Below are positions 7,828-39,612 of a DNA stretch of 64,000 nt, piece by piece (position 1 is the stretch's first letter; each line of letters opens with the position of its first letter). Below the pieces are notes generated by a model. That model had not been told where the DNA came from. It worked only from the letters and a program-made list of their open reading frames with translations, and did no database searches. The DNA is from Escherichia coli. Its GTDB lineage: Bacteria; Pseudomonadota; Gammaproteobacteria; Enterobacterales; Enterobacteriaceae. The DNA is taken from the NCBI RefSeq assembly GCF_003334315.1, contig NZ_QOWR01000004.1. One strand, written 5' to 3'. The translations under genes were made by a program, and so were the position numbers.

Positions 7828-7859
7828 AGTCAAAAGCCTCCGATCGGAGGCTTTTGACT
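7828..7859. terminator. Bidirectional intrinsic terminator between tonB and yciA
   Basis: Inverted repeat agtcaaaagcctccga / tcggaggcttttgact forms a long hairpin flanked by A/T runs on both sides; lies between convergent genes. Confidence 0.85.
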
Positions 7860-20758: not shown

Positions 20759-22654
20759 ATGGCAGGGAAGTTTCGCTGCATTTTGCTGTTGATAGCAGGG
20801 CTGTTTGTATCATCTCTAAGTTATGCAGAAAACACGGAGATCCCTTCTTATGAAGAAGGGATCTCGCTCTTTGATGTTGAAGCCACTCTGCAACCAGATG
20901 GGGTGCTCGACATCAAAGAAAATATTCATTTTCAGGCGCGAAATCAGCAGATTAAGCACGGCTTTTATCGTGATTTACCACGACTCTGGATGCAGCCTGA
21001 TGGGGACGCTGCACTGCTGAACTATCATATTGTTGGCGTCACCCGTGATGGTATTCCTGAACCCTGGCATCTTGACTGGCATATCGGGTTAATGAGTATT
21101 GTCGTGGGCGATAAACAACGTTTCTTGCCTCAAGGCGACTATCATTATCAAATTCATTATCAGGTTAAAAATGCTTTCCTGCGTGAGGGGGATTCTGATC
21201 TGCTAATCTGGAACGTGACCGGTAACCACTGGCCGTTTGAAATTTATAAGACCCGTTTTTCTCTCCAGTTCTCTAATATTGCGGGTAATCCATTTAGCGA
21301 AATCGATCTCTTTACCGGAGAAGAGGGCGACACATATCGTAATGGCCGCATCCTTGAGGACGGAAGAATTGAATCCCGCGATCCGTTTTATCGTGAAGAT
21401 TTCACGGTCCTCTACCGCTGGCCTCACGCTTTACTTAGCAATGCCTCGGCTCCGCAAACGACGAATATTTTCAGCCATCTTCTTTTACCCTCCACGTCAT
21501 CGTTGTTAATTTGGTTTCCGTGTCTGTTCCTGGTTTGTGGATGGTTATATCTCTGGAAGCGCAGGCCGCAATTTACGCCGGTAGATGTGATTGAAACCGA
21601 TGTCATTCCGCCAGATTACACGCCCGGCATGTTACGTCTCGATGCGAAGCTAGTTTACGACGATAAAGGTTTTTGTGCCGATATCGTAAATCTGATTGTG
21701 AAAGGAAAAATTCATCTGGAAGATCAGTCTGACAAGAACCAGCAAATCCTGATTCGTGTTAATGAAGGCGCGACCAGAAATAATGCGGTATTACTGCCCG
21801 CAGAGCAGTTATTACTGGAAGCGTTATTTCGTAAAGGCGATAAGGTCGTTCTTACGGGGAGACGCAACAGAGTCTTACGCAGGGCATTTTTACGGATGCA
21901 GAAATTTTATCTGCCGCGTAAAAAGTCTTCGTTTTACCGGTCTGATACTTTTTTGCAATGGGGTGGACTGGCAATATTGGCGGTCATTCTTTACGGTAAC
22001 TTGAGTCCTGTAGGCTGGGCAGGAATGAGTCTGGTGGGCGATATGTTTATTATGATCTGCTGGATTATTCCTTTTTTATTTTGTTCCCTTGAGCTTTTGT
22101 TTGCCCGCGATGATGACAAGCCTTGCGTTAATCGTGTAATCATCACTTTGTTTTTACCACTGATTTGTTCAGGCGTGGCCTTCTATTCTCTCTACATCAA
22201 TGTCGGAGATGTATTCTTTTACTGGTATATGCCAGCGGGTTATTTTACCGCTGTTTTCCTGACCGGTTATCTCACTGGCATGGGGTATATTTTTCTGCCA
22301 AAGTTTACCCAAACTGGACAGCAACGTTATGCCCACGGTGAAGCTATCGTTAACTATCTTGCGCGTAAAGAGGCGGCAACACACAGTGGGCGGCGTCGGA
22401 AAGGGGAAACACGGAAACTGGATTATGCGTTGCTAGGTTGGGCGGTCTCGGCAAACCTTGGCAGAGAATGGGCAGCACGTATCACCCCATCACTCACAGC
22501 GGCTGTTCGCGCCCCGGAAATTGCCCGTAGCGGCGTTTTATTCTCATTACAGACGCACCTAAGTTGCGGGGCCTATACCAGTTTGTTGGGGCGAAGTTAT
22601 TCCGGTGGTGGTGCTGGCGGCGGCGCGGGTGGCGGAGGCGGTGGTGGCTGGTAA
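20759..22654 (+). CDS. yciQ: Membrane protein YciQ (DUF2207) with C-terminal Gly-rich tail
   Basis: 631-aa ORF with signal peptide MAGKFRCILLLIAGLFVSSLSYA, several TM segments and C-terminal SGGGAGGGAGGGGGGGW; matches recalled YciQ length. Confidence 0.85.
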   Translation: MAGKFRCILLLIAGLFVSSLSYAENTEIPSYEEGISLFDVEATLQPDGVLDIKENIHFQARNQQIKHGFYRDLPRLWMQPDGDAALLNYHIVGVTRDGIPEPWHLDWHIGLMSIVVGDKQRFLPQGDYHYQIHYQVKNAFLREGDSDLLIWNVTGNHWPFEIYKTRFSLQFSNIAGNPFSEIDLFTGEEGDTYRNGRILEDGRIESRDPFYREDFTVLYRWPHALLSNASAPQTTNIFSHLLLPSTSSLLIWFPCLFLVCGWLYLWKRRPQFTPVDVIETDVIPPDYTPGMLRLDAKLVYDDKGFCADIVNLIVKGKIHLEDQSDKNQQILIRVNEGATRNNAVLLPAEQLLLEALFRKGDKVVLTGRRNRVLRRAFLRMQKFYLPRKKSSFYRSDTFLQWGGLAILAVILYGNLSPVGWAGMSLVGDMFIMICWIIPFLFCSLELLFARDDDKPCVNRVIITLFLPLICSGVAFYSLYINVGDVFFYWYMPAGYFTAVFLTGYLTGMGYIFLPKFTQTGQQRYAHGEAIVNYLARKEAATHSGRRRKGETRKLDYALLGWAVSANLGREWAARITPSLTAAVRAPEIARSGVLFSLQTHLSCGAYTSLLGRSYSGGGAGGGAGGGGGGGW

Positions 22655-22783
22655 TTAAGCTGATGTTAATCGAAACAAGCTTTAACCATAAAGATAGTGT
22701 AGTATGTTGCGCCTCAAAGCCAGGCCAGTTAAAACGTCGAGTCGTTTACTTAAGGCCTGAGGAGTTCAAACAGACTTTACTAT

Positions 22784-22814
22784 CAGTGAGTCAGATGTAA
22801 GTTCTGACTCACTG
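22784..22814 (+). other. Perfect 12-bp-stem hairpin in rluB 5' leader
   Basis: cagtgagtcaga (22784-22795) and tctgactcactg (22803-22814) are exact reverse complements separated by a 7-nt loop; no T-run follows; lies about 50 bp upstream of the rluB ATG. Confidence 0.5.
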
Positions 22815-22866
22815 TTGCACAAAAGCATATCAGACGCCTGGGAAGGCGACACCAAAAGGAAGCTCT

Positions 22867-23742
22867 ATGAGCGAAAAGCTACAGAAAGTGCTGGCGCGTG
22901 CCGGCCACGGTTCTCGCCGTGAAATCGAATCTATTATTGAAGCCGGTCGTGTGAGTGTTGATGGCAAAATTGCTAAACTCGGCGATCGCGTTGAAGTTAC
23001 CCCTGGATTGAAAATCCGTATCGATGGTCACCTTATTTCGGTACGTGAGTCCGCTGAACAAATTTGTCGCGTTCTGGCTTATTACAAACCGGAAGGTGAG
23101 TTGTGTACCCGTAACGATCCGGAAGGGCGTCCGACGGTGTTTGACCGTCTGCCAAAGCTGCGTGGCGCACGCTGGATTGCCGTAGGTCGTCTGGACGTTA
23201 ACACCTGTGGTCTGCTGCTGTTCACCACTGACGGTGAACTGGCAAACCGTTTAATGCATCCAAGCCGTGAAGTTGAACGTGAATACGCCGTGCGTGTATT
23301 TGGTCAGGTTGACGACGCGAAACTGCGTGATTTGAGTCGTGGCGTGCAACTGGAAGATGGTCCGGCAGCTTTTAAAACCATCAAGTTCAGCGGCGGCGAA
23401 GGGATCAACCAGTGGTACAACGTTACTCTGACCGAAGGCCGTAACCGTGAAGTTCGTCGTCTGTGGGAAGCGGTTGGTGTGCAGGTCAGCCGCCTGATCC
23501 GTGTTCGTTACGGTGATATCCCACTGCCAAAAGGTCTGCCACGCGGTGGCTGGACGGAGCTGGACCTCGCCCAGACTAACTATCTGCGCGAACTGGTGGA
23601 GCTACCGCCAGAAACCAGCTCTAAAGTCGCTGTAGAAAAAGACCGTCGTCGCATGAAGGCGAATCAGATTCGTCGTGCGGTGAAACGTCACAGTCAGGTG
23701 AGCGGCGGTCGTCGTTCTGGCGGACGTAATAATAACGGTTAA
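22867..23742 (+). CDS. rluB: 23S rRNA pseudouridine(2605) synthase RluB
   Basis: 291-aa ORF; N-terminal S4 domain, RsuA-family catalytic region, Arg/Gly-rich C-terminal tail; matches recalled RluB. Confidence 0.92.
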
Positions 23743-34522: not shown

Positions 34523-34529
34523 CAACTAT

Positions 34530-34562
34530 TTGCTTGCCGGTTATTTTGCTTCCGGCAAGCAA
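34530..34562. terminator. Bidirectional terminator between convergent acnA and ribA
   Basis: 11-bp inverted repeat ttgcttgccgg / ccggcaagcaa with T-rich loop, flanked by A/T-rich sequence. Confidence 0.75.
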
Positions 34563-34585
34563 ATGAATTACACAATGCAAGAGGG

Positions 34586-39004: not shown

Positions 39005-39033
39005 AAAAGCCACGGATATATCCGTGGCTTTCG
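39005..39033. terminator. Bidirectional terminator between convergent yciH and osmB
   Basis: Near-perfect inverted repeat aaagccacgga-tat-tccgtggcttt with A-run upstream and T-run downstream. Confidence 0.85.
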
Positions 39034-39344: not shown

Positions 39345-39612
39345 AATACTCTCTCCTGAATTTATGATTCACGGAAGTAAGCTCTCTATAACTATAATAG
39401 CTAAGAATAAGCCTGGTGAAATTATTCCGTGAAATCTGCTCGCGCGCAGGGTTATATCACGCAGGTGATAATGACTTCCTGTTATATCGCTGATAATAAT
39501 TTTATATCTTGAGAGTGTTAATAACAGGTAAATAGTCTTAATTATCAACCAGGAATCATCTTAGAGCGGATGATTTGCCAAACTGCAAATCATCCGTAGA
39601 GAAGGGAAATGG

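Follow-up and report, generated by a model that had tools for sequence, protein, structure and literature searches.

A hairpin in the Escherichia coli rluB leader as a probable remnant of an integrase-island end

A perfect hairpin lies just upstream of rluB in the stretch of Escherichia coli DNA analysed here (64,000 nucleotides, hereafter the window). We consider it probable that this hairpin is a relic of the integrase-proximal (attR-side) arm of a tyrosine-integrase island that targets a 16-bp core in the rluB leader, kept today as an rluB-sense RNA stem-loop with a structural or stabilising, non-terminating role. The comparisons below show its homology to the ends of such islands, the att core that adjoins it, the repeated motif in its arms and the covariation of its stem. 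The pattern of pairing points to an RNA-level, rluB-sense constraint, and the structural or stabilising function that the hairpin would serve today is drawn from the same sequence comparisons. In our view the adjoining invariant element of 16-19 nt is a more interesting object than the hairpin itself.

The hairpin and its accessory segment

The window carries the E. coli gene order trp-rnm-yciO-yciQ-rluB-cobO, with the hairpin in the spacer between yciQ and rluB (Table 1). Direct reading and an inverted-repeat scan of the window both gave 12 of 12 paired positions around a 7-nt loop at 22784-22814, placed 129 nt past the yciQ stop codon (which ends at 22654) and 52 nt ahead of the rluB ATG, confirming the perfect stem and the rounded distances of about 130 and 50 bp given in the initial annotation. 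The flanking bases add no pairs to the 12-bp stem, as T faces T at the next position, and the sequence 3' of the hairpin is TTGCACAAAAGC, with the T-run absent. We estimate that chance would produce a perfect 12-bp inverted repeat (loop no longer than 40 nt) about 0.15 times per 64 kb, and an estimate of the same type for the 212-bp yciQ-rluB spacer gives about 5e-4. This low expectation indicates that the hairpin is non-random, in line with the earlier remark that such a stem would be unusual for chance.

RNA folding, which had been proposed as a check, gave -24.7 kcal/mol for the 75 nt containing the hairpin and about -19 to -20 kcal/mol for the stem by itself. A spacer of 246 nt was more stable than its own shuffles (z = -3.75), with the hairpin forming an independent domain. 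An Rfam covariance-model scan of 22000-23500 at E<=10 returned chance-level matches only, none of them relevant. Elsewhere in the window, the longest perfect inverted repeat has 19-bp arms (TCACCTCATTCTGACAAGA) around a 7-nt loop at 47771-47815. Further perfect inverted repeats lie at 7828-7859, 39006-39031, 34528-34564 and 39567-39596 (those lacking a spacer are 16+16 and 13+13; those with loops have arms of 13 bp and 12 bp), and some of these resemble bidirectional terminators.

Table 1. Features of the yciQ-rluB region, in window coordinates
Feature	Position	Strand	Details
Accessory segment	20732..22832	+	yciQ (20759-22654) and island-end relic; supplants the 66-bp native rluB promoter/leader of yciQ-less E. 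coli
Degenerate integrase 5'-end remnant	22668..22713	-	about 25-45 nt; short DNA alignment
Hairpin 5' arm	22784..22795	+	CAGTGAGTCAGA; homologue of the arm motif ATCAGTGAGTTAA in intact islands
Hairpin loop	22796..22802	+	7 nt, TGTAAGT
Hairpin 3' arm	22803..22814	+	TCTGACTCACTG
18-nt spacer	22815..22832	+	TTGCACAAAAGCATATCA; homologue in intact islands, TTTTTGAAAGTATACCA; final stretch of island-derived sequence ahead of the core
Invariant element	22833..22851	+	GACGCCTGGGAAGGCG(ACA), also written GACGCCUGGGAAGGCGACA; 5-bp stem CGCCU/AGGCG with a GNRA loop
rluB	22867..23742	+	Shine-Dalgarno sequence AAGGAAG at 22856-22862

Of 5426 complete E. coli genomes, 3977 contained the 76 bp around the hairpin, at a median of one place per genome across those 3977, which is not the distribution of a dispersed repeat such as REP/BIME or ERIC. 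Matches to the 31-mer of the hairpin were found in 3690 genomes, about 70% of them with the perfect stem and about 30% with a single C->T change at position 29 that turns a G-C pair into G.U, proportions that are approximate, being estimated from a spread sample of rows with counts confounded by end-trimming of the BLAST alignments.

The hairpin sits in a 2.1-kb accessory segment, made up of yciQ and 178 bp, that is missing from about 27% of E. coli genomes and from E. albertii and Citrobacter. In a yciQ-less strain rluB follows yciO after about 100 bp, with neither yciQ nor the hairpin. The long and short alleles are identical from GACGCCTG into rluB, whereas leftward of this point 66 bp in the short allele stand against 2.1 kb in the window, and 941 of the 4918 region-matching E. 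coli genomes align solely from window position 22833 on. The short yciO-rluB arrangement is also found in E. albertii, Citrobacter, Enterobacter and others, and because the hairpin is absent from it, the hairpin is not ancestral to the rluB leader. An ancestral enterobacterial leader element is thus not what the window holds: island-free genomes have a different leader hairpin, and the one in the window came with mobile DNA. Presence of yciQ is itself polymorphic, with about 73% of complete E. coli genomes carrying it together with the relic. A tblastn search for yciQ in 80 Enterobacterales loci found none outside E. coli; the Klebsiella huaxiensis group has homologues of 55-57% identity at the same position, and Serratia fonticola has a 38% identical homologue at a different location.

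Integrase islands at the rluB leader

The last ~165 bp of the accessory segment match the integrase-proximal end of tyrosine-integrase islands. Homologues of the hairpin were found upstream of rluB in Leclercia, Enterobacter, Kosakonia, Cedecea, Shimwellia, Pseudocitrobacter, Erwinia, Pluralibacter, Klebsiella and Yersinia, and the idea of an insertion specific to E. coli was rejected on finding homologues in other genera. In Kosakonia quasisacchari a divergent tyrosine-integrase gene begins just upstream of the hairpin, and an integrase gene shared with Kosakonia is present in four E. coli genomes, including strain A17. The A17 island occupies 9.1 kb between yciO and rluB, encodes an integrase, a RelA/SpoT-domain protein, a resolvase, a DUF4238 protein, a YagK/YfjJ protein, an HTH protein and a DUF6150 protein, and is bounded by perfect 16-bp direct repeats GACGCCTGTGAAGGCG (16/16) that are identical to the invariant leader element. 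At attL, which faces yciO, the native leader is intact up to the repeat and identical to the leader of yciQ-less E. coli. At attR, which faces rluB, the integrase start is followed in turn by two copies of TGTGTGACAGC, the hairpin, T5, 15 nt, the core and rluB. An island of 8.4 kb in Pectobacterium likewise has 16/16 core repeats and a right end that matches the A17 architecture. The empty site (attB) is seen in yciQ-less E. coli, E. albertii and Citrobacter, which have yciO, native leader, core and rluB in succession.

The direct repeat that bounds complete islands, GACGCCTG(T/G)GAAGGCG, makes up the first 16 bases of the invariant element and serves as the att core. The window has a single copy of it, and island-derived and chromosomal sequence join there (22833 on). 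Full-length integrases were found in A17, Kosakonia, Erwinia, Pectobacterium and Serratia, within a family that is widespread across Enterobacterales; in Serratia and Kosakonia the integrase gene adjoins rluB with different cargo. The yciO-rluB spacer is an integration hotspot common to at least two integrase lineages across Enterobacterales.

Several observations on individual loci are recorded here in their own right. Cargo is variable among the islands (loci L095, L096, L023, L094 and L097): those of A17 and Pectobacterium share DUF4238, resolvase and YagK/YfjJ genes, a RelA/SpoT-domain protein is encoded in the A17 and Serratia islands, and Hcp or Tlde1 type VI modules occur in Leclercia and Kosakonia. 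The RefSeq start of the A17 integrase (14338, in L095 12824-14443) is probably 35 codons short, since the upstream in-frame sequence MIRGRTYYTNFRLND... is conserved with Kosakonia. In a Klebsiella pneumoniae locus (L098, 9700-10000) a relic leader of this kind precedes a full prophage that occupies the same core but points the other way and whose integrase is 56% identical; two element lineages thus appear to have used one att site in succession. A third type of leader, in locus L053 and other Erwinia/Pantoea, has a strong GTTACA-N17-TGTATAAT promoter with repeated GTACAAC/GTTACAA upstream and AACTCATTGATTTTT downstream. In L053 a C-terminal integrase fragment adjoins yciO, and leaders of this type may represent another island family at the rluB site.

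At the DNA level the window spacer aligns to the A17 right end over an integrase 5' block of ~25 nt, the hairpin region and the core. For the integrase remnant the alignment is best at 22689-22713 (TAAAGATAGTGTAGTATGTTGCGCC), which corresponds to A17 TAAAGTTAGTGTAGTATGTGCGCCC, whose minus strand encodes MIRGRTYYT; a tblastn search of the window with the integrase gave no match, so that the remnant is called from a short DNA alignment. Integrases found beside the hairpin, core and rluB range from full length through 302, 263, 68 and 34 to 25 residues, and the window appears to stand at the end of this decay series. Judged by these alignments, the hairpin of the window and of K-12 is probably the remnant of a mobile-island end in the rluB leader, one-ended and with its T-run lost. 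A17 and Kosakonia share a conserved, open reading frame for MIRGRTYYT. A candidate conserved rluB promoter "P1" (GTGTAGTATGTGCGGCC, with a GC-rich discriminator, GTGTAGTATG..GCC) was rejected as the reverse complement of this integrase N-terminus, and a conserved block upstream of the hairpin in Kosakonia and metagenome-assembled genomes, considered as a regulatory RNA, proved to be partly integrase coding sequence.

The arms of the hairpin in intact islands are inverted copies of a 13-bp motif, ATCARTGAGTTAA, followed by T5; the 3' arm there reads TTAACTCGTTG and then T5, where the window tail reads TTGCACAAAAG. In A17 the motif occurs without mismatch at both island ends, with more copies in both orientations (7 matches at <=2 mismatches vs 1.4 expected), and the 11-mer TGTGTGACAGC is also found at both ends. 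The arms in the window are diverged copies of this repeated arm motif. Outward from the core, both A17 arms have an A/T tract and then (A/T)ATCAA-NNNN-TTA, and AATCAAGTCGTTA lies about as far from the core in an arm of the unrelated K. pneumoniae prophage. The IHF consensus is WATCAANNNNTTR, which the 13-bp motif resembles; the window arms show 2-3 mismatches to it and the arms of a divergent Escherichia lineage (L004) show more. On the simplest reading, the hairpin arms would originally have been a pair of inverted sites for accessory proteins in the att arm, and the "U-run" of the homologues would be the A-tract of a core-proximal, putative IHF-like site. The copy of the motif in the other arm forms no good hairpin. 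Among the functions listed in the initial annotation, a palindromic protein-binding site thus comes nearest to the origin, in that the arms descend from a 13-bp att-arm motif of an integrase island; as a present-day function it is weighed below.

We propose the following sequence of events. An island would integrate at the 16-bp core GACGCCTG(T/G)GAAGGCG in the rluB leader, with the crossover inside GACGCCTGKGAAGGCG, moving the native rluB promoter and first leader hairpin to its far end and making its own right end the new rluB upstream region. Read outward from the integrase start, an intact right end consists of two copies of TGTGTGACAGC, the inverted ATCARTGAGTTAA pair, T5, ~15 nt and the core. 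In the window and in K-12 the island would be dead, with the integrase reduced to a short remnant, the second att copy gone and yciQ on the left. The inverted pair would then have drifted from the motif, lost its T-run and become a perfect 12-bp palindrome. Its arms would originally have bound accessory recombination proteins. Today the palindrome would be part of an rluB-sense transcript, retained as an RNA stem-loop and standing in for the native hairpin 7-18 nt upstream of the invariant core hairpin. Since the window strain has neither an integrase nor a second att site, a role in recombination today is excluded.

Pairing constraint and the current role

A typical homologue reads ATCAGTGAGTTA - loop - TAACTCGTTG TTTTTGAAAGTATACCA, followed by the invariant GACGCCTG(T/G)GAAGGCGACA, with loops of 3-18 nt among the homologues. 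In a MAFFT alignment of 23 homologues from ~10 genera, both sides change in 9 of 14 pairs and 81% of cells are paired, against 32-50% in slid controls and none of 500 shuffles reaching the observed value. The core 10 pairs comprise 172 Watson-Crick cells, 29 plus-strand G.U cells and one A.C cell, the last equivalent to G.U on the minus strand; these counts, like those for covariation, are phylogenetically non-independent, and by eye amount to ~10 independent G.U events vs 1. Each of the 23 homologues folds more favourably as the plus strand than as the minus strand. More broadly, in a set of 82 distinct leaders the 55 nt that precede the core fold more stably than shuffled sequence, and the plus strand is more stable in 54 of these (Wilcoxon p ~1e-4, with kinship uncorrected).

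The divergent lineage L004 has arms CAGTGGGGCAGGT/ATCTGCCCCACTG, which differ from those of the window by two fully compensatory pair changes and one wobble, with nearly identical flanks. It shares the relic architecture of the window, and the compensatory changes arose after integrase loss. Conservation of the pairing, a check suggested in the initial annotation, was therefore found both as covariation across the 23 homologues and as the two compensatory pairs in L004. The Escherichia arms have drifted from the 13-mer, and the stem has grown to 12-13 perfect pairs. A covarying hairpin likewise precedes the core by 7-18 nt in island-free native leaders; examples of its arms are AATGGCGCT/GGCGCCATT (E. 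coli and Citrobacter), GCAGGGCG/CGCCCTG (Enterobacter) and CTGCTGA/TCAGCAG (Pectobacterium). The one-sided wobble excess, the compensation in L004, the drift of the arms with a longer stem, the other-arm copy that forms no hairpin and the covarying native hairpin together point to RNA-level constraint on the pairing in the rluB sense. This constraint lends indirect backing to a possible role in mRNA stabilisation or leader structure, one of the functions raised in the initial annotation. The hairpin might act by protecting the mRNA, by offering a factor a platform or by pausing. A leader peptide spanning the 5' arm was discarded because of a stop codon in one homologous locus (L037).

Several features would suit a leader attenuator or intrinsic terminator on rluB-sense transcripts, which would form early in the leader brought by the island, stop or pause RNA polymerase and set rluB expression: T5-6 follows the stem in most homologues (for example TTGTTTTTGAAAG), the native leaders of Enterobacter, Lelliottia and Pantoea sp. 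1.19 have a canonical GC-rich stem and TTTTT at the same place, and the structure is favoured on the plus strand. We nevertheless consider this rather unlikely. In the window just TTG comes after the stem (tail TTGCACAA), a terminator scan of 22300-23200 on both strands finds no site, and the Yersinia and Pluralibacter homologues also have no U-run. The T-run of intact islands is equally readable as the A-tract of a minus-strand IHF-like site, the core is likewise bordered by candidate IHF-like sites with A/T tracts in the other arm and in the unrelated prophage, and no alternative antiterminator pairing was seen. Among the 3' ends listed in one term-seq study, none lies between K-12 1310519 and 1327761, the latter being listed as the rluB terminator (Adams et al. 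2021, PMC7815308). The initial annotation had argued from the missing U-tract against a simple intrinsic terminator, which agrees with these data, and had named term-seq as a check, which yielded no 3' end listed at the hairpin (PMC7815308). The same study reports a Rho-dependent 3' end inside yciQ at K-12 1325258 (window ~21280), so upstream transcription may rarely reach rluB (PMC7815308). A perfect stem shortly past the yciQ stop could also suggest a processing site for RNase III or another enzyme, or a 3' stabiliser or terminator of the yciQ mRNA, but this is highly improbable: the hairpin is present in many genomes without yciQ and beside a divergent integrase gene. RNase III substrates usually need roughly two turns (~20 bp) of double-stranded RNA, and the 12-bp stem falls well below this, which speaks against the RNase III site initially put forward. 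The Rho-dependent end inside yciQ, with none listed at the hairpin, likewise argues against a 3' element of yciQ (PMC7815308).

The palindrome might instead still act at the DNA level, bound by a nucleoid protein such as IHF or by a regulator that modulates the rluB promoter, with the RNA hairpin incidental. Its arms do derive from a motif that is found in both att arms and both orientations and fits WATCAANNNNTTR, and it occupies the only DNA available for an rluB promoter. This appears improbable, however, as pairing is kept despite the mismatches of the window and L004 arms to the consensus, homologues differ in the distance between the arms (3 to 18 bp), and the wobbles strongly favour one strand, which a double-stranded site does not predict. 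It is also established that quasipalindromes are corrected by template switching in E. coli, and such self-repair of DNA palindromes could yield "compensatory" changes without selection. The hairpin would then be a functionless relic with its symmetry kept by template switching, consistent with the dead island in the window strain and with the substitutions between E. coli and L004, which cluster in the palindrome as a mutational hotspot would (~10 of 31 positions vs ~2 of 54 in the flanks). We judge this very improbable, as it leaves the plus-strand G.U excess across genera unexplained and explains neither the decay of the other-arm motif vs the pairing kept here nor the analogous hairpin in native island-free leaders.

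Within the reading we prefer, the current role as an RNA stem-loop would fall if transcription started inside the 5' arm. A consensus promoter scan found none on the plus strand in the spacer, and a looser scan returned weak candidates only; one of these, a weak -10 candidate TACTAT at 22778, would place the start inside the 5' arm. A second promoter between the hairpin and the core was discounted because the spacings do not fit. More likely, the native rluB promoter is TGTATA(C/A)T, which is seen in island-free leaders.

The core itself forms a hairpin 5 nt ahead of the rluB Shine-Dalgarno sequence. All 6 of its pairs are invariant in 81 of 81 Enterobacterales leaders save one cell; the covariance-model alignment of all 81 leaders is structure-fitted and leans towards structure. 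This hairpin has no Rfam match, and we found no description of it in the literature. CsrA binding at its loop was rejected, as most species have GUGA there, not GGA. The core hairpin resembles helix 93 of 23S rRNA, the RluB substrate (AACGUC-GUGA-GAC(A)GUU). It is conceivable, if unlikely, that the rluB leader is a bipartite regulatory RNA, in which a variable covarying hairpin and 7-18 nt precede an invariant GNRA hairpin (GACGCCUGNGAAGGCGACA) that would act as an RluB operator by mimicking helix 93, and that islands were selected to bring a substitute first hairpin. Were this so, islands would keep rluB control intact despite the displaced native promoter. A leader element of 16-19 nt that is invariant from Yersinia to Escherichia and without a described function is a testable candidate cis-regulator of a ribosome-modification enzyme.

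Implications and relation to known integration systems

In K-12, what looks like an ordinary intergenic region, up to the 16-bp core immediately upstream of rluB, would be a mobile-element scar, and the upstream regions that drive rluB would differ between E. coli strains and lack homology to one another. There are consequences for promoter annotation, for pan-genome calls of yciQ and for engineering at yciQ, which is mentioned in several strain-engineering papers. Literature searches found no paper naming rluB as an integration site, and nothing relevant on rluB with yciQ, transcription starts or attenuators.

The attP arms of phage lambda carry the IHF sites H1, H2 and H'. The A17 core is similarly flanked on both sides by repeated arm motifs (ATCARTGAGTTAA and TGTGTGACAGC) and by putative IHF-consensus sites with A/T tracts. 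Unlike in lambda, two copies of the rluB-island motif form a close inverted pair that is kept as an RNA-compatible hairpin, and we know of no equivalent in lambda. SXT/R391 elements insert in the 5' end of prfC, where SXT supplies a new N-terminus and a mapped promoter. Both they and the rluB island cut a housekeeping gene from its own promoter and supply new upstream sequence, but the rluB island, unlike SXT, replaces the untranslated leader only. With Rho-independent terminators and leader attenuators, the homologues in other genera share a stem-loop and T5-6 in a 5' leader, whereas the copy in the window has neither a U-tract nor a listed 3' end (PMC7815308).

A close parallel is the family of dusA-associated islands, for which Farrugia et al. 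2015 (PMC4482086) describe tyrosine integrases that use one conserved site at the 5' end of a gene for an RNA-modification enzyme. In dusA islands as in rluB islands, the integrase gene lies beside its target, the cargo varies widely, and the 5' region that is displaced gives way to the island end (PMC4482086). They differ in the target, which is the coding 5' end for dusA and an untranslated leader with a hairpin-forming 16-bp core for rluB. Integrase islands that replace the 5' upstream region of a housekeeping gene are thus a known kind, of which the rluB-targeting island is a not-yet-described member.
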